DNA of 64,000 bases from NCBI GenBank assembly GCA_964502095.1, contig CAZCUF010000011.1, forward strand, positions 10,459 through 74,458, read 5' to 3'. This DNA comes from an uncultured Anaerolineaceae bacterium (GTDB taxonomy: Bacteria > Chloroflexota > Anaerolineae > Anaerolineales > Villigracilaceae). A model generated the notes under the pieces. It searched no databases, was not told where the DNA came from, and saw only the letters and a program-made list of their open reading frames with translations. Both the position numbers and the translations under genes were made by a program. Shown here in pieces: positions 17,736-48,638 of this stretch; position 1 is the first letter of the stretch, and each line of letters begins with the position of its first letter.

Positions 17736-18338
17736 ATGAATGGATTCCGGTTTCAATTCCCTGTTTTGACAATTGGCCTTTCGGTTGTTATCGGCCTGGT
17801 TTTTCTCGTTCATCATCCGACCGAGGTGCTGGCTCAGGGACCCGCGACGGCGACCCCCGCATCGGCTGGCGGCGTATTCATCACGGTTACATATGCCGAT
17901 GAGCCATTTGTGAACGTCCGCAGTGGGCCAAGCACTTTATATGACATTATTGGCCAGTTGGCCGCTGGAGATACGGCCCCAGCCTTGGGCGTTTCTCCCG
18001 GACATGAATGGATTCAGATTTCGTTCAACGGCGGTATAGGGTGGGTTTATAGCGCCTTTGTCGCGGTTTCGCCAGGCGCATTACAAATCGTCGAGCCGCC
18101 GCCAACCGCAACGCCTCTGGCCAGCCCGACTCTTGATCCCACGCTCGCCGCGGCATTTAATGCCGCGCCTACGGCTACCCGCCTGCCAACTTTTACGCCG
18201 CCGCCGCCTCTTGTCGTCCCGAGTTTTACTCAAAGCTCCTCGGCTTCGGATGGCAGTTTTTCACTGGGCTGGGTGATTATCGGCATCGGTCTGGTCGGCG
18301 TTATTGGATTTTTACTCTCGTTTCTTCGCCGCTCGTGA
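17736..18338 (+). CDS. Surface protein: signal/TM + SH3b-like domain + Pro/Thr linker + C-terminal TM with basic tail
   Basis: VNVRSGPSTLYDIIGQL..GD...ALG......WIQI....GIGWVY matches the SH3_3 pattern. PT-rich segment. The protein ends GWVIIGIGLVGVIGFLLSFLRRS. Confidence 0.6.
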   Translation: MNGFRFQFPVLTIGLSVVIGLVFLVHHPTEVLAQGPATATPASAGGVFITVTYADEPFVNVRSGPSTLYDIIGQLAAGDTAPALGVSPGHEWIQISFNGGIGWVYSAFVAVSPGALQIVEPPPTATPLASPTLDPTLAAAFNAAPTATRLPTFTPPPPLVVPSFTQSSSASDGSFSLGWVIIGIGLVGVIGFLLSFLRRS

Positions 18339-18970
18339 TGTTTAAAGTCCAGCTTTCTGCCCGATTTCGATTCATGGCGCACTTGCTCATCGCGGCCGGC
18401 ATCATGGCAGTCGCTTTTCTGATGCCGGGTGGGATTCCGGTTTCGGCGCAACAGCCCACCGGTTCCGTGCCGACCGTGACGGGGACTCCCTCAGGGCCGC
18501 TGGTAAAAGTCTATCAGGATTTGGGGCAGATCATCGTGTATGCGGGGCCCAGTTCCTTTGATTATCCGGCAATCGGACTTTTGCTTCTGAATCAGCAGGC
18601 TCCGGCTCTAGGACGATCTCCGGACGGGAGCTGGATTCAAATCTACTATCCGGGTGTGCCGGGTTCAGTTGGGTGGATTTACGCGCCGTATGTTTCCATC
18701 ACGGCAGTTCCTTCCTTGCCCGTCCTCGATATACCATCTACGCCGACACCGTTATCGACTCCGACCATTGACCCTACGTTGGCCGCAGCCTACATTACAA
18801 CAGATCAGCCTCAACGTCTTGCCACTTTTACTCCGCCCGCTCCGCTTGTGGTACCAACCTTTGTGGATGAGACCCCCGCGCCGAGCAGTATTCCTATCGG
18901 TTTGTTGATTTTCGGCTTTGGCTTTGTGGGCGTATTGGGCGCGTTGATTTCCTTCCTGCGAGGCAGGTGA
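18335..18970 (+). CDS. Paralogue of the preceding SH3b-like surface protein
   Basis: Same architecture. A conserved block PTPLSTPTIDPTLAAAY...LATFTPPAPLVVPTF corresponds to ATPLASPTLDPTLAAAF...LPTFTPPPPLVVPSF in the neighbour. ATGA start/stop overlap. Confidence 0.6.
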   Translation: MMFKVQLSARFRFMAHLLIAAGIMAVAFLMPGGIPVSAQQPTGSVPTVTGTPSGPLVKVYQDLGQIIVYAGPSSFDYPAIGLLLLNQQAPALGRSPDGSWIQIYYPGVPGSVGWIYAPYVSITAVPSLPVLDIPSTPTPLSTPTIDPTLAAAYITTDQPQRLATFTPPAPLVVPTFVDETPAPSSIPIGLLIFGFGFVGVLGALISFLRGR

Positions 18971-41044: not shown

Positions 41045-42847
41045 GTGATCATGACTCACACAATTACACCACCCGCCTACGTAACTCAATCTGAAGAACT
41101 CTACGATAAAGGCTATGATCCTAAAGTCGCGCGGCGGCTGTTCGGATACGCGCGGCCTTACTCGGGTCAATTGCTCATTGCCGCTGTTCTGATGTTTCTG
41201 GCTTCTGCCGCGGCGGTGGCCGGGCCTTATTTCGTAAAGGTTGCCATTGACAGCGGCCTGACCGCCAAAAATTACGATGCGTTACGATACACGGTGCTGG
41301 CTTATCTTGGCGCCGCCGTCGTGCAATGGGTTTCCACGTACTTCCGCGTGAATATCATGTCCTGGGTGGGGCAGGCGGTTATTTACGATCTGCGAACTGT
41401 CCTTTTTCAACATCTGCAACAACTTTCTTTGAGTTTTTACAGCCGCTATTCGGTCGGACGCGTCATCACGCGCGTCATCAACGATGTGGAGATTTTGCGC
41501 GACTTTCTGACCTGGGCTGTGCTGGCCGTTACGCGCGATTTATTCACGCTGATCATGATCATCATTGTGATGCTCACCATGAATGTCCGCCTCGCGCTTC
41601 TGACCTTTAGCGTGCTTCCGTTTATGGTGCTGGCGACTCTGCTCTTTCGGCGTTTCTCGCGCGCGGCCTATCGTAAAGTGCGCGCCGCGATCTCGTGGGT
41701 GAATTCGGTTCTGGCGGAGAATGTCAACGGCGTGCGCGTGGTACAGGCGTTCTCGCGCCAAATCTATAATTACAATAATTTTGCCGAATATGTAAATCGG
41801 TATCACCTCGAGCGCGCCATTGACGCGGCGCGCATTGCTTCGTTCTTCAGCCCGGTGGTGGACGTGCTCGGCGCGGTTGCCACTGCGCTGGTTGTGTGGG
41901 TTGGGGGAACGGCAGTATTGGGAGAGCAGATTACGGCGGGAGTGCTGGTCGCGTTCATTCTTTACATTGACCGATTCTTCGATCCCATCCGCGACCTGAG
42001 CCGCCGTTTCGACGCATTGCAATCCACTATGGCGGGCGGAGAGCGCATTCTGGCCCTGCTCGATACCGATGTGGATGTGCAGGATGCGCCTGACGCGCGC
42101 GACCTGCCTGTCATCAAGGGTGAAGTTCAGTTCGACCATGTGTCTTTCCATTACTCGGATGATCCTCAGCCGGTATTGACGGACATTGACTTGCGCGTAC
42201 ATCCCGGCGAGACCGTCGCCTTGGTCGGTGAAACCGGCGCGGGCAAAACTACGATCGTCAAATTACTCTCGCGTTTTCATGACCCAACCGTCGGCCGCGT
42301 GCTGGTGGATGGTCACGATCTGCGTGAAGTCACGCAGGCCAGTTTGCGCCGTCAGATGGGAATTGTGTTACAGGATCCGTTTCTATTCAACGGTTCGGTG
42401 CAGGAGAACATTTTGTTCGGTCGTTTGAGCGCGAACGACGGAGATGTGATCGCCGCGGCGCAGGCGGTAGGCGCGCACGAGTTTATTGTCCGCTTGAAAA
42501 ACGGATACAACACCTCGGTCGAGGAAGGAGGCGTGTTGTTGTCCGTCGGCCAGCGGCAATTGCTGTCATTTGCGCGCGCTTTATTGGCGGATCCGCGCAT
42601 CCTGATTCTCGACGAAGCTACCTCCAGCGTAGATACACAGACCGAGCAAATCATCCAACGCGCGCTGGCGCGGCTATTGAAGGGGCGGACCGCGTTCGTG
42701 ATCGCGCATCGCCTGTCTACCATTACGAGCGCCGATCGGATTGTTGTGATCGTGGGCGGGCGGATCGTGGAGCATGGAACACACGCGGAATTGCTGGAAA
42801 ATAGGGGAACGTATTACGAGTTGTATCGCACGGGATTTCAGGAATGA
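41045..42847 (+). CDS. ABC exporter, fused TMD-NBD half-transporter (partner subunit)
   Basis: GETGAGKTT Walker A, LSVGQRQLLSFARAL signature, ILILDEATSSVD Walker B. It lies 6 nt after the previous gene, so a heterodimer is likely. The start is GTG 41045 or ATG 41051. Confidence 0.85.
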   Translation: MIMTHTITPPAYVTQSEELYDKGYDPKVARRLFGYARPYSGQLLIAAVLMFLASAAAVAGPYFVKVAIDSGLTAKNYDALRYTVLAYLGAAVVQWVSTYFRVNIMSWVGQAVIYDLRTVLFQHLQQLSLSFYSRYSVGRVITRVINDVEILRDFLTWAVLAVTRDLFTLIMIIIVMLTMNVRLALLTFSVLPFMVLATLLFRRFSRAAYRKVRAAISWVNSVLAENVNGVRVVQAFSRQIYNYNNFAEYVNRYHLERAIDAARIASFFSPVVDVLGAVATALVVWVGGTAVLGEQITAGVLVAFILYIDRFFDPIRDLSRRFDALQSTMAGGERILALLDTDVDVQDAPDARDLPVIKGEVQFDHVSFHYSDDPQPVLTDIDLRVHPGETVALVGETGAGKTTIVKLLSRFHDPTVGRVLVDGHDLREVTQASLRRQMGIVLQDPFLFNGSVQENILFGRLSANDGDVIAAAQAVGAHEFIVRLKNGYNTSVEEGGVLLSVGQRQLLSFARALLADPRILILDEATSSVDTQTEQIIQRALARLLKGRTAFVIAHRLSTITSADRIVVIVGGRIVEHGTHAELLENRGTYYELYRTGFQE

Positions 42848-42958: not shown

Positions 42959-43405
42959 ATGGATCCAATTACATTGGCCGCGTCTGTCACGACCCTGCTT
43001 GCGCCGTATCTTGCCAAGGCGGGAAAGGTATTGGCCGATAAGGCCGCCGAACAACTGCCCGGAGCAGTTGGCGCGTTGTGGGACAAAATTTCCCAAAGGT
43101 TCCAGTCCAAGCCTGCCGCGCAGGATGCGGTCGTAGATCTGGTGCAAAATCCGAGCGATCAGGATAATCAGGCCGCGTTCGAAACTCAACTGCGGAAGAT
43201 GTTGAAGGATGACCCCGCCTTCCTGAAAGAATTATCCGATTTGACCGACAAGGCTCAACAGGAAACGATCAGGTTGCAGGGCAGTGGCGCGGTTGCGACG
43301 AATGGCGGTGTTGCGGCCGGGCAGGGCGGTGTGGCCGTCGGCGGAAACGTGCAAGGCAACATCGTGGTTGGCAACAATAATAAAGTTTCGAATAAACCGA
43401 AATAG
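42959..43405 (+). CDS. Small helical protein with a C-terminal G/N/V-rich beta-solenoid/amyloid-like motif (candidate Bell/HeLo-like effector)
   Basis: 148 aa. Hydrophobic N-terminal helix MDPITLAASVTTLLAPYLAKAG, then charged helical region to about aa 105. aa 106-143 read GSGAVATNGGVAAGQGGVAVGGNVQGNIVVGNNNKV. The motif recurs at the N-terminus of the next gene. Confidence 0.5.
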   Translation: MDPITLAASVTTLLAPYLAKAGKVLADKAAEQLPGAVGALWDKISQRFQSKPAAQDAVVDLVQNPSDQDNQAAFETQLRKMLKDDPAFLKELSDLTDKAQQETIRLQGSGAVATNGGVAAGQGGVAVGGNVQGNIVVGNNNKVSNKPK

Positions 43406-43417
43406 CTGTTCATCTGC

Positions 43418-43447
43418 CGCCCTGCCCTAAATCAGCAGGGCGCTTTT
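43418..43447 (+). terminator. Weak intrinsic-terminator-like hairpin between the small gene and the NLR gene
   Basis: 8-bp stem CGCCCTGC / GCAGGGCG, a 9-nt loop, then CTTTT. It ends 8 nt before ATG 43455. Confidence 0.4.
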
Positions 43448-43454
43448 ATTTCCT

Positions 43455-45833
43455 ATGGCAACTGTCAATGTGCAAGGTAACGTCGAAGGCAATATCGTCG
43501 TCGGCGATAATAACTTTGTAGTTAATACAAATTACGGCACGGTTGTATATAAGCAGGCCGAGCCGCGCGTTCAGGCGCGGAGTCTTTCACCCAAGGCGCC
43601 GCGCAGACCGCGCGGTTTTATCGGACGCAAAGCCGAGCTGGAGAAACTGGAAAGCTGGATTGCCGCTTCCGACCCGATCCTCCTGCACGGCATGGACGGT
43701 ATGGGGAAGACCACGCTTGTCAAGCAGGCCGCTAACGGCGCCGCCGCGACTTCACAGCCCAATGGAGTTGTCTATCTCGAAGGCGTAGATGAAACCGGGC
43801 AGATGCTCGGCTTTGGGGATATTGTTCAACGCCTCTTCGATGCGTTGTTCGAGTCCGACCCTGCGCTCAAGGTGGACCTGACGACTGCGCGTACATATTT
43901 GAGCAATGTGCGCGCTTTGGTACTGCTCAACTCACTGACCCTCACAGACGACAATCTGCAAAAATTACTGGATCTGTTTCCGTCCGCGCCGATTCTGATC
44001 GCGGCCGAAGCCGGTTCGCGCCTCGACGCATTTCAGGACCTTTCGCTTTCACCGATGCCGCGTGCCGATGCGCTGGCTTTGTTCTTCGACCGCGCCGAAT
44101 TGAAATTGGATGACGCCAACCAGGTTCCTGCCGATCGGATCGCTCAATTGCTGGATGATGTACCTGCCGCGCTGGCGATCGTTGCGAATGTGATCCGCGA
44201 AAAGGGACTCAAGCTGATAGACGTGCTGGACCAATTGCGCACCGCGGCCGCCTCCTCGAAAGAAGCTGGGCGCGCCGCGCTCGAACGCGCCTGGGCTTTG
44301 ATGTGGAATCAATTATCCGAGGATGAGCGCGGCATGATGACCATGTCCGCCGCGGCCTTCGGCGTTTCTGTAGATCGAAAATGGCTGGAGGGCCTGGCGG
44401 GCGGAAAAGCTGTCAGCGGAAAATTAGAGTCGATGGAACTGTTGCAGGCTAATAGTCCGCGCCTGAGGCTGATGCCCGGCATGCGCGCCATGATGCTCGA
44501 CCGCGTAAATCTTCAGTCGGCGCGCGAGCGCTGGCTGGAAGAAATGTCTTCCGCCATGGACGAACGATGGGACGATTTCGATTTCGTGGGGGATGAGCTG
44601 GGAAATTTAATTGGGTTGATCGAATGGTGCGCGGCCAACCGTAATTGGGCCAAGGTGATTTCGCTGGGACGAAAGCTCGACCCGTATCTTACCCTGCACG
44701 GCTTGTGGGATGTATGGCAGAGATTGCTCGGTCGTTTGTTGGAGGCCGCGCGCGCCTCAAAGGATCATTTATCGGAAGGCTGGGCTTTGCATCAGTTGGG
44801 TACGCGGGCTTTGGGAATGAACGACGCGCACACGGCCCGCAATTTTTTGCAACAGGCTTGTGTGGTGCGCCGCGCCGCCAAAGATGAAGTTGGGCTGGCC
44901 TATAGCCAGCATAACCTGGGATTACTTGGGCCGGTTGCCGTTGCAAGGCCCGCAACCGTAAAGCGCGGATGGTTCGCGTGGCTGGTCGGCGGATTGGTGA
45001 CCGCCGCGGCGCTGGGAGGGACGCTCCTCGGCGGCGCGGGAGCTATGCTCTTGAATCTGCTTTCGCCGCCCAGCGCGACCCCCACATTGACGGTCACTTG
45101 GACGCCAAGCTCAACGCATACACCGACTTTTACCGCCTCGGTGACTGCCTCAGCGACTCCTTCGCTCACCGCCTCGCCGACATCTACTGTGACGTTCACG
45201 CCAACGATGACAGACACCCCAACCGTTACGCCAACTCCGGTTTACACAATTTTACGCGGCACCGTGATTGACGATGTGGCTTGTTATTATGGGCCGGGCC
45301 GTATGTATTTGTATAAATATGGTCTCAAGCAAGGCGCGAATTTGAGTGTGCTGGGGATCAACCAAAACACCGCTGGCACATGGCTGTTAGTGGGGAACAC
45401 ATTCACTCTTTCCACGCGGCTATCGAATCCGTGTTGGGTGAGTTTGAAGAGCATGGATGTGGATGGAGATCTCGCCGGGCTCTTCCCGGCTTATCCTGAT
45501 CAAACGCCTTTGCCGAAATCGCCGCTTTACCCGCCGCCGATGAACGTGATTGCCATCCGTAGCAAGGATCAGGTGACGATCACCTGGGATTACACCACCC
45601 CACTCCCGCCGGGTATGCGCGGAGATCACAGCACCAAGAGCCCGCTTTGGCTGGTCGAATTGTGGACGTGCCAGAAGGGCCGGCTGGTATTCACACCGAT
45701 TGGCGCTTACGATTCGACAGTGATAATTACGGACGAGCCGGGCTGTTCCGAGGCGTCGCATGGGCGCGTGTATCTGGTCGACTCCGATGGCTACGATGGC
45801 CCATCTGCGATCAAGTGGCCGGGGTTCCAATAG
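43455..45833 (+). CDS. NB-ARC-type STAND NTPase with N-terminal G/N/V motif, short helical repeats, a TM helix, a PT linker and an extracytoplasmic SH3b-like C-terminal domain
   Basis: MATVNVQGNVEGNIVVGDNNFVVNTNYG N-terminus. FIGRKAELEKL...LLHGMDGMGKTTLVKQAA P-loop. PILIAAE (RNBS-B-like). DVPAALAIVA (GxPLA-like). TM WFAWLVGGLVTAAALGGTLLGGAGAMLLNLL at aa 506-536. PT-rich aa 537-596. The C-terminal 196 aa contain 4 Cys. Confidence 0.7.
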   Translation: MATVNVQGNVEGNIVVGDNNFVVNTNYGTVVYKQAEPRVQARSLSPKAPRRPRGFIGRKAELEKLESWIAASDPILLHGMDGMGKTTLVKQAANGAAATSQPNGVVYLEGVDETGQMLGFGDIVQRLFDALFESDPALKVDLTTARTYLSNVRALVLLNSLTLTDDNLQKLLDLFPSAPILIAAEAGSRLDAFQDLSLSPMPRADALALFFDRAELKLDDANQVPADRIAQLLDDVPAALAIVANVIREKGLKLIDVLDQLRTAAASSKEAGRAALERAWALMWNQLSEDERGMMTMSAAAFGVSVDRKWLEGLAGGKAVSGKLESMELLQANSPRLRLMPGMRAMMLDRVNLQSARERWLEEMSSAMDERWDDFDFVGDELGNLIGLIEWCAANRNWAKVISLGRKLDPYLTLHGLWDVWQRLLGRLLEAARASKDHLSEGWALHQLGTRALGMNDAHTARNFLQQACVVRRAAKDEVGLAYSQHNLGLLGPVAVARPATVKRGWFAWLVGGLVTAAALGGTLLGGAGAMLLNLLSPPSATPTLTVTWTPSSTHTPTFTASVTASATPSLTASPTSTVTFTPTMTDTPTVTPTPVYTILRGTVIDDVACYYGPGRMYLYKYGLKQGANLSVLGINQNTAGTWLLVGNTFTLSTRLSNPCWVSLKSMDVDGDLAGLFPAYPDQTPLPKSPLYPPPMNVIAIRSKDQVTITWDYTTPLPPGMRGDHSTKSPLWLVELWTCQKGRLVFTPIGAYDSTVIITDEPGCSEASHGRVYLVDSDGYDGPSAIKWPGFQ

Positions 45834-46130
45834 GAATCCCGCGCTCGCTGTATTTCAAGTTTTCACGATAAAATCGAAGCGTTTGATCATTGCGAGCCAA
45901 ATCGTCTTTGCGATTTTGGCGCTTTGTAATTTTGTGCGAATCGAATAAGAGAGTGTTAAGTCCGTATCGTCCCTCTTCGGATACGCGGATTTCTCGGAAG
46001 TCATGGGAAAAAAGACGGAATCATAAACGGCTTGCCGCAGAAGCCAGTGAGCCTCGTGTTGTTCGTGCTTAAAACCCGAAGTTGAGAGATGCCCTCCATG
46101 GAAAATTGCCGCCTGTTCATGAACACCGCC

Positions 46131-48638
46131 ATGCGAAAAATATTCTTGACGATAATCGTTTTTCCCTTTCTTGCCGCCTGCCAGCCTCAGGCAGTTCCGA
46201 CTCCCGTGCCGACCACAGTTGCCGCCGGTCCGAGCTCGCCTTTGGATGGAAATTGGAACGCACAAGGGCAGGATTCGAACGGGTTGAAGTTCGAGATCAA
46301 TTTCATTGTGCGCGCTGAAAAACTGGCGGGGTTTTCGTACAACTTTATCGGCACCGATGGAATTCCCTGTTATTCCTTTCAATTCGTAAACATGCCTCCC
46401 GAACGACAAATTGCGATTCAATCGAATCGAGCCGCCGCCTCATTGGGATCGGACTCCCTCGAAATTGTTTTTACAAACGATCAATCTGCTTCGGGCCGCA
46501 GTGAAATCCATTGGCATGAACGTAATCCGCGCTGTAACGGCGATTATGATGTGACTTGGAGCGCGGTCAGGCAGGCGGCCCCTGTTGCGCAGGCGACCCA
46601 ATCCACTCAGCCGCCGCAATCTCAGGCCCCGCATCCATTCCAGACCCTGATCCAGATTCTGGTCTTTGGCCTCTCCAACGGCGCAGTACTGGCGCTGAAT
46701 GCCATCGGCGTGACCCTGATCTACAGTACGGTGCGCGTGCTGAATCTTGCGCATGGCGATGTTTTCGCGTTGACGACCGCCCTGGTCACCTCGTTGATTA
46801 ACTTTATCGGCGTACAGCGAAGCTGGCCGCCGTTACAAATCGCAGGAATTCTGTTAATGGCTTTGTGCGCGGCCATGGTTTTGGGCGCACTCCTTAGCAT
46901 GGGCGTTGACCAATTCGGATTCAGGCCCTTCCGCGGCGCGTCCCAGCTTGCGCCGTTGATCGCCACTTTGGGCATTTCATTTATTCTGTATCAGGGGTCG
47001 CTGATCTGGCGCACATTTCAGGGATCGTGGATTCCGGGCGAGCATCGCAGTGTGCCGGGCTTGCCGGAAGTGCCCACCGACGGCATCCCAAATCTTTTGC
47101 CTGAAATCAATCTGGCGGCGAAACTGGGCTTCTCGAATCTTGTGATTCGCTTCAGCGACGTGTTTGTCCTGTTCATGGCTATCGCGTTCGTGCTATTGGC
47201 CATCTGGTTCCTCAAAAAGACTTATACGGGCCGCGCGATCCGCGCTTTGGCGCAGAATCAGGAACTGGCGCAGATTCTCGGCATCAACATCAATGCCGCG
47301 ATTCGAAATGCCTTTGCTGTCGGCGGGGCCTTTGCGGGCGCGGCCGCCTTTATCTTTGCGCTGTATTATTCGCGTCCGTTCGGCGCGGCCGGCGCGCAAA
47401 GCGGCTTGATCGCTTTCGCGGCCGCGCTGTTGGGCGGCATTGGCTCACCGGTTGGCGCACTGCTGAGCGGGTTGACCATGGGCGTTTTCTCCTCGCTTAG
47501 CGATTACTATCTCAGCGCGCAATGGACGCCGTTTTTTGTTTTGGCATTGCTGGTGATCCTGCTTGCCTGGCGGCCAACGGGCCTCGCCTCTGTGGAAGGC
47601 GCGGAAACGGAATCCGCTTCCACGCGCGATTCGGTCATTTTAACGGCGGCTAATTCGGGGTCCCGAACGAATCGCTGGCTGGTCATCCTGCTGATTGCTT
47701 TGGGCGCGTTTCCTATTCTTTCGGGCTGGTTTCATTGGGGCGGGCAGATCATCCTGCGCACGGTGGAAGTTTTTATTTTGCTGGCGTTGGGTTTGAATCT
47801 GGCGCTGGGTTTGGCGGGCTTGCTGGATTTCGGCTTCGCGGCCAGTTTTGGGTTAGGCGCCTATGCGGGCGCATTATTGAGTCATTATGATGCTGTGGTG
47901 GCCTTGTTGGTGGGCGCGGGCGCGGCAAGTCTGCTTGGATGGCTCAAAGGCGGCCTGGCGTTTCGTTTGCGAGGAGATTTTTTGGCAGTGGCCACCCTCG
48001 CGCTGGGACTCATGGTGCGGCAGGCGGCGATCAACTTGCACGACCTGACGGGCGGGGCGGGCGGCTTTGGCGGTTTCCCTGCGCCTCATTTCCTGGACTT
48101 TAGCCTGGCAGACCCGACGATCAAGTTTTATCTCGTCTTTGTGTTTGTTGTGCTTATCTCGCTGGCGAGTCAGCGTTTGATGCGCTCGCGCACGGGCCGC
48201 GCTTGGGTGGCCTCCAGCGAAGACGAATCTGCCGCACAAGCCTCCGGTGTGAATGTGGGCCGGGAACGTATGTGGGCTTTGATCTTCAGTTCCGCTCTGG
48301 CAGGGTTGGCCGGTGCGCTGTACGCGGGAACGTTTTCGTATGTGGACCCTGAGACGATGTCGTTTCAAACCACTTCCTTGATTCTGACGATGGTGATTCT
48401 CGGCGGGGCGGGGAATGTGCCCGGCCTGTTGATCGGCGCGGCGGCCATTGTGCTGTACGATAAAGTTTTCGTGACCAAAGTGGCCGATCTGGTCGCGCTG
48501 ATCTGGCCGCATAATCTTAGTATCGGAAATATCGGCTCCGCGCCGGATATTCGCGGGGCGAGCTTCTTCAATTTTGGAATTGCTTTGTATTTGACGGTGC
48601 TTCTCAGGGCGCGCAGAAGAAAAGAACGGCGTGAGTGA
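46131..48638 (+). CDS. Fused LivH-like + LivM-like branched-chain-amino-acid-type ABC permease with an N-terminal lipoprotein head domain
   Basis: Lipobox MRKIFLTIIVFPFLAAC. About 150-aa Cys-containing soluble domain. LivH-like (LVFGLSNGAVLALNAIGVTLIYS...LAHGD). LivM-like (ALGLNLALGLAGLLDFGFAASFGLGAY). Start chosen at ATG 46131. Confidence 0.75.
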   Translation: MRKIFLTIIVFPFLAACQPQAVPTPVPTTVAAGPSSPLDGNWNAQGQDSNGLKFEINFIVRAEKLAGFSYNFIGTDGIPCYSFQFVNMPPERQIAIQSNRAAASLGSDSLEIVFTNDQSASGRSEIHWHERNPRCNGDYDVTWSAVRQAAPVAQATQSTQPPQSQAPHPFQTLIQILVFGLSNGAVLALNAIGVTLIYSTVRVLNLAHGDVFALTTALVTSLINFIGVQRSWPPLQIAGILLMALCAAMVLGALLSMGVDQFGFRPFRGASQLAPLIATLGISFILYQGSLIWRTFQGSWIPGEHRSVPGLPEVPTDGIPNLLPEINLAAKLGFSNLVIRFSDVFVLFMAIAFVLLAIWFLKKTYTGRAIRALAQNQELAQILGININAAIRNAFAVGGAFAGAAAFIFALYYSRPFGAAGAQSGLIAFAAALLGGIGSPVGALLSGLTMGVFSSLSDYYLSAQWTPFFVLALLVILLAWRPTGLASVEGAETESASTRDSVILTAANSGSRTNRWLVILLIALGAFPILSGWFHWGGQIILRTVEVFILLALGLNLALGLAGLLDFGFAASFGLGAYAGALLSHYDAVVALLVGAGAASLLGWLKGGLAFRLRGDFLAVATLALGLMVRQAAINLHDLTGGAGGFGGFPAPHFLDFSLADPTIKFYLVFVFVVLISLASQRLMRSRTGRAWVASSEDESAAQASGVNVGRERMWALIFSSALAGLAGALYAGTFSYVDPETMSFQTTSLILTMVILGGAGNVPGLLIGAAAIVLYDKVFVTKVADLVALIWPHNLSIGNIGSAPDIRGASFFNFGIALYLTVLLRARRRKERRE

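Follow-up and report, generated by a model that had tools for sequence, protein, structure and literature searches.

We analyzed an NLR-like gene in a 64,000-nucleotide stretch of DNA from an uncultured Anaerolineaceae bacterium (GenBank assembly GCA_964502095.1, contig CAZCUF010000011.1, positions 10,459 to 74,458 of the forward strand). This whole stretch is referred to as the window, and the NLR-like gene, its partner gene and the features within them all lie on its + strand. The open reading frame (ORF) at 43455..45833 encodes 792 amino acids (aa), and its final base, 45833, closes the stop codon. The product very probably crosses the membrane once, the N terminus lying inside the cell and the C terminus outside, and together with a 148-aa gene just upstream it probably forms a putative amyloid-signaling pair of the Bell/BASS type. 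The topology is judged very likely because the hydrophobic segment is conserved, K and R residues are in excess on its N side, Cys is enriched after it, four Cys residues of the outer domain are invariant, stand-alone copies of that domain carry a lipobox, and paralogues carry typically extracytoplasmic domains. The original prediction, made from the letters of the window, had claimed a membrane span with a domain displayed outside, and comparison among relatives (the segment in 118 homologues, the K/R bias, the Cys enrichment and the stand-alone lipoproteins) strongly supported it.

The layout claimed in that prediction, namely basic KR residues, a 31-aa Gly-rich hydrophobic segment at aa 506-536, a 60-aa linker and a 196-aa Cys-containing domain, was found in every part. 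The basic residues K502-R503 (44958..44963) are placed on the predicted cytoplasmic side by the sequence and by the family-wide K/R excess. They are followed by the Gly-rich segment WFAWLVGGLVTAAALGGTLLGGAGAMLLNLL (44970..45062), which is predicted to be a single transmembrane (TM) segment of the uncleaved signal-anchor type, and by a Pro/Thr/Ser-rich linker (aa 537-596, 45063..45242), recognized by its composition, in which 22 T, 11 P and 9 S account for 42/60 residues (70%). The segment contains the top 19-aa Kyte-Doolittle window of the whole protein (1.76; the usual cut-off is 1.6), and its Hessa scale sum (+1.05) is the minimum for the protein. The sole other Kyte-Doolittle window above 1.6 is at aa 229, within the ATPase fold.

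The same arrangement was seen throughout the family. All 118 full-length homologues checked (118/118) had a single strongly hydrophobic segment at aa ~500-545, with Kyte-Doolittle values of 1.7-3.2, and the Hessa sum was negative in most of them. A basic stretch such as KKRSPLR or RRKRGRRW often stood N-terminal to the segment, and in most homologues P, T and S made up 50-70% of the residues after it. In the species-level loci the hydrophobic segment lay 493-515 residues downstream of the N-terminal motif in nearly all complete ORFs. Across the 118 homologues, K+R averaged 2.57 in the 15 residues that flank the segment N-terminally and 1.25 in the 15 that flank it C-terminally; counted by protein, the N side exceeded the C side in 78, the two were equal in 31, and the C side exceeded the N side in 9. 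The share of cysteine was 0.19% in the part that precedes the segment and 1.52% in the part that follows, an eight-fold difference. The TM segments were also rich in Gly, which made up 12.6% of the core residues, and a GG pair was present in 77/118, often as W-x(2-4)-GG. A Gly-rich TM segment of this kind could serve helix packing or act as an intramembrane-protease substrate.

A full-length search returned 258 homologues at E <= 1e-5. The closest, P0020, has 792 aa, is 99% identical and comes from an independent assembly; the 120 best also include one that is 78% identical and about 100 that are 38-54% identical with 99-100% query coverage. The homologues come from independent NCBI, JGI, ENA and Logan assemblies, the named ones being annotated as Chloroflexi or Anaerolineales, and a scan of one genome per species gave 41 related loci, all but one of them in Chloroflexota/Anaerolineales metagenome-assembled genomes. 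The C-terminal module stood at the very end of 108/120 of the best homologues (38-99% identity, phmmer). A homology search with the module as sole query recovered 19 stand-alone proteins but not the NLR fusions, not even the 99%-identical one, which reflects a word-index limit and not biology.

These data decide a caveat raised in the original prediction, that the ORF might be an assembly chimera of two genes. Such an artefact would have joined an NLR gene to a secreted-protein gene by misassembly, a lost stop or a frameshift, or the C-terminal part would be made from an internal start, and we consider either very improbable. The module does occur elsewhere as its own gene with a signal peptide, but the segments of the fusions are without the lipobox Cys of those stand-alone genes, and composition is even across the junction. 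The NLR frame is broken at three loci, L005, L018 and L025, where ORFs of 72-402 aa are found and the match continues beyond them; these could be pseudogenes or assembly errors. However, the intact fusion is present in assemblies from NCBI, JGI, ENA and Logan as well as in many species-level genomes, and its uninterrupted recurrence at 38-99% identity refutes the chimera.

The region after the linker, aa 597-792, was taken in the prediction to be one 196-aa domain with an SH3 pattern in its first half. The SH3 assignment of the first half held at the level of the fold, but the region comprises two domains, an SH3-like beta-barrel (aa 597-676, 45243..45482; alignments, AlphaFold2 and Foldseek) and then an Fn3-like beta-sandwich (aa ~692-792, 45528..45830; AlphaFold2 and Foldseek). 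Its four cysteines, C610, C660, C739 and C764, were invariant in a 47-sequence alignment of diverse relatives, which fits two disulfides. In the SH3-like half C610, G613, P614, C660 and W661 were invariant in the alignments, and in the Fn3-like half W711, C739, D760, C764 and Y780. The AlphaFold2 model of both domains, built from the 47-sequence alignment, was all-beta with a mean pLDDT of 93.3 and a pTM of 0.88.

The structure-similarity search proposed with the original prediction gave matches for both folds. When the two-domain model was compared with the PDB by Foldseek, the matches fell on the C-terminal half only and were Fn3 domains (titin, tenascin and others; TMt 0.5-0.62, E ~1e-3). 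The SH3 half was therefore modelled separately; the first 84 residues alone gave a pLDDT of 88, and SH3 domains were 50/50 of the best PDB matches of this model. The bacterial SH3 matches had TMq values of 0.61-0.68 with E only ~1e-2, and included 2kt8, 2krs, 3pvq/4r0k (root-mean-square deviation 1.6-1.7 A), 4krt and 6bim. Wall-associated proteins among the SH3 matches were C. perfringens CPE1231 and CPF_0587, the YrvJ amidase, the dipeptidyl-peptidase VI BT_1314, NlpC1/2 and the phiSM101 endolysin. The C-terminal 196 aa of the window protein had no Pfam or NCBIfam match, SH3 families included. Among the 47 relatives, weak sub-threshold Pfam matches were obtained for SH3_3 in two (best E 0.0044), SH3_16 in two and SH3_6 in two, and fn3 was weakly matched in 2/47. 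The module profile against PDB sequences gave chance-level matches only (E 0.56-0.7), one of them on the Abl2 SH3 domain. The N half of the ectodomain is thus modelled as SH3b at the level of fold and not of Pfam: the predicted SH3b-like domain stands as a fold, but it is no member of SH3_3.

The prediction had also seen the same SH3 pattern in two other ORFs of the window, 17736-18338 and 18335-18970. Both are Pfam SH3_3 proteins (E 2e-12 and 7.5e-4). They share the fold with the NLR ectodomain, but no significant sequence similarity was found (BLASTP E 0.76), and on this value paralogy of the NLR ectodomain to the 17736 ORF was rejected. The two ORFs are adjacent paralogues; each combines a signal peptide and an SH3_3 domain with a PT-rich linker and, at the C terminus, a hydrophobic anchor, and the second starts 4 nt before the end of the first.

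We then turn to the parts predicted to lie in the cytoplasm. The STAND / NB-ARC-like nucleotide-binding module (aa ~55-300, 43617..44354) matched Pfam AAA_16 with 38.3 bits (cut-off 32.6). Three other Pfam scores in the ORF were below threshold: NB-ARC (18.2 vs 23.5), NACHT (18.6 vs 26.7) and nSTAND6 (20.0 vs 27.7). NCBIfam FxSxx_TPR gave a partial match at aa 166-295 (E 4.5e-17). The Walker A motif is GMDGMGKT (aa 79-86, nt 43689-43712), and G79, G82, G84 and K85 were invariant in 34 sequences. The Walker B and sensor-1 positions were placed by eye against the Apaf-1 motifs, and the sites examined were aa 156-162 (43920-43940) and aa 180-192 (43992-44030), respectively. The acidic position of Walker B, which follows LVLL, is occupied by N159 in the window protein; across the 34 relatives it is N in 13, S in 10 and D in 9; a conserved Arg at the sensor-1 position was not found in these relatives. 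To judge from these residues, the module may bind nucleotide without hydrolyzing it. The short TPR-like helical arm (aa 365-491, 44547..44927) was partially matched by NCBIfam HaaT TPR over aa 365-491 (E 7e-8) and, below threshold, by Pfam TPR_12 over aa 423-469 (22.6 bits, cut-off 30.1). Mean identity was 71% for the N-terminal motif, ~49% for the ATPase and ~48% for the TPR arm, the motif being the most conserved part.

This N-terminal motif is what links the NLR to its neighbour. The partner effector gene (42959..43405) encodes a ~100-aa helical N-domain, a Gly-rich stretch and a C-terminal amyloid-type motif, GNVQGNIVVGNNN (nt 43343-43381). The amyloid-type motif region of the NLR occupies aa 3-34 (43461..43556), and its core, GNVEGNIVVGDNN (nt 43476-43514), agrees with the partner motif at 11/13 positions; the partner ends …GGNVQGNIVVGNNNKV and the NLR begins …VNVQGNVEGNIVVGDNNFVV. 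The pair is called Bell/BASS-type because a motif at the C terminus of the partner matches one at the N terminus of the NLR, which is the hallmark of such pairs. In these the shared motif is ~20-25 aa long, and there too the effector carries it at the C terminus and the NLR at the N terminus. Other likenesses are the adjacency of the genes, the short G/N/V/I-rich motif that ends a small helical effector and recurs at the start of an NB-ARC/TPR-type protein, the alternative CHAT or TIR2 effectors, and the occurrence in Chloroflexi. A conserved Gly-rich stretch, GSGAVATNGGVAAGQGGVAVGG, precedes the motif of the partner (partner aa 109-141, 43283-43381) and is absent from the NLR; by analogy with HET-s-type effectors, it might be a second pseudo-repeat.

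The intergenic gap between partner and NLR is 49 nt, and a weak terminator-like hairpin lies within it at 43423-43442. A promoter/terminator scan of 42.7-46.2 kb gave counts that were not above those of shuffled sequence, so no operon is claimed on the basis of that scan.

The window partner itself had no Pfam match. It has 57 homologues, many of them on contigs that also hold NLR homologues, and distant relatives reach the threshold of Pfam HetE-N (PF20701), as P0196 does with 28.3 bits vs 25. A motif-bearing partner adjoins the NLR in about 14 related loci. The domains of these motif-bearing partners were small helical (Bell-like), CHAT (E 1e-22 to 3e-27), Trypsin_2 (E 2e-15) or TIR_2 (E 3e-7); the motif was seen on CHAT, trypsin-like or TIR neighbours at L013:5412-6872, L018:5446-6954, L020:5418-6917, L005:2356-3102 and L033:1689-2258. 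In the CHAT partners the CHAT domain appears to be inserted between the start and the end of the small helical partner domain. [quoted passage not shown]

The ectodomain was also found apart from this NLR. Stand-alone module proteins have 260-290 aa and begin with a lipobox-type signal peptide (…LAGVAC, …FAGAAC, …LLGCS) followed by a PT linker. One of them, P0004, has housekeeping neighbours with no NLR nearby, and this context leaves the idea that the fusion arose from conserved neighbour genes unsupported. Close paralogues of the NLR that do not have the module carry other domains after the TM segment: a PD40/DPPIV_N beta-propeller, DUF3298, or Chlam_PMP/CSLREA-type (PMP-like) repeats. L043:52-5429 holds one motif-bearing partner gene of 145 aa and, after it, two NLR paralogues in tandem, the first with a DUF3298 and the second with an SH3-Fn3 ectodomain. 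These swaps favor a specificity role for the ectodomain without proving it.

A profile of the module was searched against 1.84 billion cluster representatives and matched 4006 proteins at E <= 1e-3, of which 168 were at E <= 1e-30; in the matches the module was nearly always at the extreme C terminus. Other architectures were counted among the best 150 matches of the profile. Six representatives (P0233, P0235, P0268, P0270, P0283 and P0335) had TIR_2 (E 1e-21 to 1e-25), a TM segment (aa ~255-272) and then the module, and one (P0323) had FHA, TM and module. In four others (P0223, P0237, P0243 and P0256) the TM segment and module followed a ~200-aa N-domain (MTxLRVxIRMxSDDAxELxAQALNxDxRL...) that had no Pfam match. 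The spread of architectures is the pattern that would be expected of an extracytoplasmic input or anchoring module common to cytoplasmic immune and signaling outputs.

Whether the ectodomain senses or anchors bears on how the protein would work. As an anchor, it would fix the NLR at the wall or at a place like the septum, sensing would fall to the TPR arm or the nucleotide-binding module in the cytoplasm, and membrane tethering would put amyloid nucleation beside the target membrane of the effector. We regard this as possible but on the unlikely side. The bacterial SH3 domains that the model matches serve endolysins, amidases and NlpC/P60 enzymes as wall-binding modules, and Kaur et al. see TM fusions to SH3b or PEGA as placing systems 'close to the cell-membrane' (PMC7159879). 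The cytoplasmic TPR arm, with ~48% identity, is conserved, which favors the anchor, but it has only ~3 repeats and is short for a ligand-binding array. The module is also found as plain surface lipoproteins without a signaling part; however, the close paralogues swap their ectodomains while keeping the cytoplasmic part and sharing one effector, which is the pattern of a specificity part, and the swapped-in DUF3298 serves the anti-sigma factor RsiV as its ligand-binding ectodomain.

As a whole, the explanation that we lean towards is a transmembrane NLR with an exposed ectodomain and an amyloid relay to the partner. The PT-rich stalk would hold the disulfide-bonded SH3-like and Fn3-like module in the cell-wall space, where a surface event (candidates are a peptidoglycan ligand, wall damage, a phage or a neighbouring cell) would alter the clustering or mobility of the ectodomain. 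The cytoplasmic nucleotide-binding modules would then gather and oligomerize, the N-terminal motifs of the NLR would take a cross-beta fold, and this fold would template the same fold in the partner motif. The helical domain of the partner would then attack the membrane, leading to cell death; in related loci the place of this partner is taken by a CHAT or trypsin-like protease or by a TIR domain. Within this scheme, the assignment of the ectodomain as the signal input is put forward tentatively.

Several observations weigh against this explanation. The K/R bias is moderate, and 31/118 proteins show none. The segment of the window protein is among the weakest of the family (Kyte-Doolittle 1.76, Hessa +1.05), and, being Gly-rich, it could formally be a re-entrant loop in this one protein. 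With Asn at the acidic Walker B position here, variation at that position in the family and no sensor-1 Arg, it is doubtful that NTP is hydrolyzed and hence that a classical STAND cycle takes place. By pattern search, a partner was found within 3 kb in only ~14 of the ~30 complete loci. PADLOC defence models match neither the partner nor the NLR. The likeness to Bell/BASS pairs is one of gene layout and motif pairing.

Activation might also take another form. RsiV is activated by regulated intramembrane proteolysis, and its ectodomain includes DUF3298, the domain also carried by one NLR paralogue. By analogy, because the TM segment is Gly-rich and the ectodomain of a paralogue is of the RsiV type, ligand-triggered intramembrane proteolysis might release the NLR.

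Cultured members of this group of Anaerolineales/Chloroflexota are filamentous. The same topology and relay could have a role other than phage defence, such as self/non-self recognition of filaments, programmed death within a filament or an envelope-stress checkpoint, which we hold to be rather improbable. The NLR family is confined to Chloroflexota/Anaerolineales, PADLOC matches are lacking, and the neighbourhood is housekeeping-like, with ABC transporter genes on either side, and not a defence island; the TIR, CHAT and trypsin effectors, however, are typical of conflict systems. Bell/BASS pairs are reported to track the multicellular habit (bioRxiv 10.1101/2020.01.06.895854). According to the abstract of Ibarlosa et al. 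(bioRxiv 10.1101/2024.11.07.622273), the fungal counterparts act in allorecognition, but the sole bacterial Bell-type pair tested experimentally is an abortive-infection system. The present data do not separate a role of this kind from defence.

The surface-exposed NLR proposed here was compared with known systems. The NLRs of Bell/BASS pairs end in a cytoplasmic TPR or WD array, whereas the window protein has a short arm, a TM segment, a PT stalk and a predicted extracytoplasmic module; the paper of Dyrka et al. that defines the bacterial NLR amyloid motifs never mentions TM segments (bioRxiv 10.1101/2020.01.06.895854). The relay proposed here is the one of HET-S/NWD2 of Podospora and Bab/Agp of E. 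coli, in which a receptor or activator (an NLR in Podospora) nucleates an amyloid fold that converts a membrane-targeting effector encoded next to it (bioRxiv 10.1101/2024.11.07.622273). The abstract of Ibarlosa et al. 2024 (bioRxiv 10.1101/2024.11.07.622273) speaks of no receptor in either system that spans the membrane and carries a domain outside, and the trigger of Bab/Agp is phage infection sensed intracellularly.

Parallels for the ectodomain are found in the GAP1-N2 GTPase-centric and iSTAND ternary systems of Kaur, Burroughs, Iyer and Aravind 2020 (PMC7159879), which, like the present one, are NTPase conflict systems of multicellular bacteria including Chloroflexi. In them a C-terminal TM segment leads to SH3b, PEGA, beta-sandwich or PASTA domains outside the cell, and Kaur et al. 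infer wall interaction for the GTPases and vWA components built in this way (PMC7159879). They differ in that the NTPase is a TRAFAC GTPase, or the TM segment is on a vWA protein, and they have no NB-ARC-type module in the same chain and no amyloid motif. Among STAND proteins, the C-terminal classes of bacterial NACHT proteins include 'those that have transmembrane domains' (Kibby et al., bioRxiv 10.1101/2022.07.19.500537), and a NACHT-CLec target diversified by a diversity-generating retroelement is predicted to be periplasmic (Dore et al. 2024, PMC10907252). As far as the available parts of these two sources go, their proteins resemble the window NLR in being STAND proteins with a C-terminal TM segment or a non-cytoplasmic location, but they use NACHT and not an NB-ARC-like module, and no PT stalk, SH3-Fn3 ectodomain or amyloid motif is described for them.

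No description of a transmembrane NB-ARC or amyloid NLR turned up in a literature search; subscription journals were thinly covered, so this absence is not proof. The original prediction had inferred that the arrangement is not a described one, and this stood for a transmembrane NB-ARC or amyloid NLR but not in full, since TM segments on NACHT proteins and TM-SH3b fusions on other conflict NTPases are known. What appears to be new is a putative Bell/BASS-type pair whose receptor would be a single-pass membrane protein with an exchangeable ectodomain, and what is known is the analogous fusion of TM and SH3b in related conflict systems.

Other systems share the logic of the topology. PknB-type PASTA Ser/Thr kinases and RsiV, like the window NLR, have a cytoplasmic domain, one TM segment and wall- or ligand-binding domains outside, but their output is a kinase or a sigma-factor trap and not an oligomerizing NTPase with an amyloid trigger. 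In Toll-like receptors and plant receptor kinases a surface ectodomain, one TM segment and a death or immune domain are combined in an analogous way; their polarity is opposite to that seen here, where the cytoplasmic domain is N-terminal, and the ectodomains are non-homologous, so the likeness is an analogy only. The layout of the TIR-TM-module proteins resembles an inverted Toll-like receptor.

Other genes lie around the pair. In the window, an ABC transporter ORF is found at 41045-42847, and directly 3' of the NLR an 849-aa ORF (46089-48638) begins like a lipoprotein and continues with a soluble region that contains Cys, after which come many hydrophobic segments. An ABC-transporter gene pair is also found near the partner and NLR genes of L043.

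NLR/STAND receptors are regarded as intracellular sensors almost by definition, and a conserved family with its C terminus outside would be a bacterial counter-example to the rule that NLRs are cytosolic. The predicted ectodomain is a soluble, folded part of ~200 aa that could be used to fish for a ligand, which makes the question of the ligand testable. The natural swaps of ectodomains and the relatives coupled to TIR and FHA offer material on how a single TM segment switches an oligomerizing NTPase. If the ectodomain is an anchor only, the meaning is more modest, and amyloid nucleation would be sited at the target membrane of the effector. A wider proposal, made still more tentatively than the signal-input role, is that Chloroflexota possess a repertoire of surface NLRs in which an exchangeable ectodomain (SH3-Fn3, propeller, DUF3298 or PMP-like) would report outside events to an oligomerizing NTPase that fires an amyloid death trigger; the same ectodomain on TIR and FHA would then give this one surface-sensing system further outputs in parallel. 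If the NLR does act as a receptor at the cell surface, one protein would unite the surface pattern-recognition receptor and the intracellular NLR, two arms of immunity that plants and animals keep apart.

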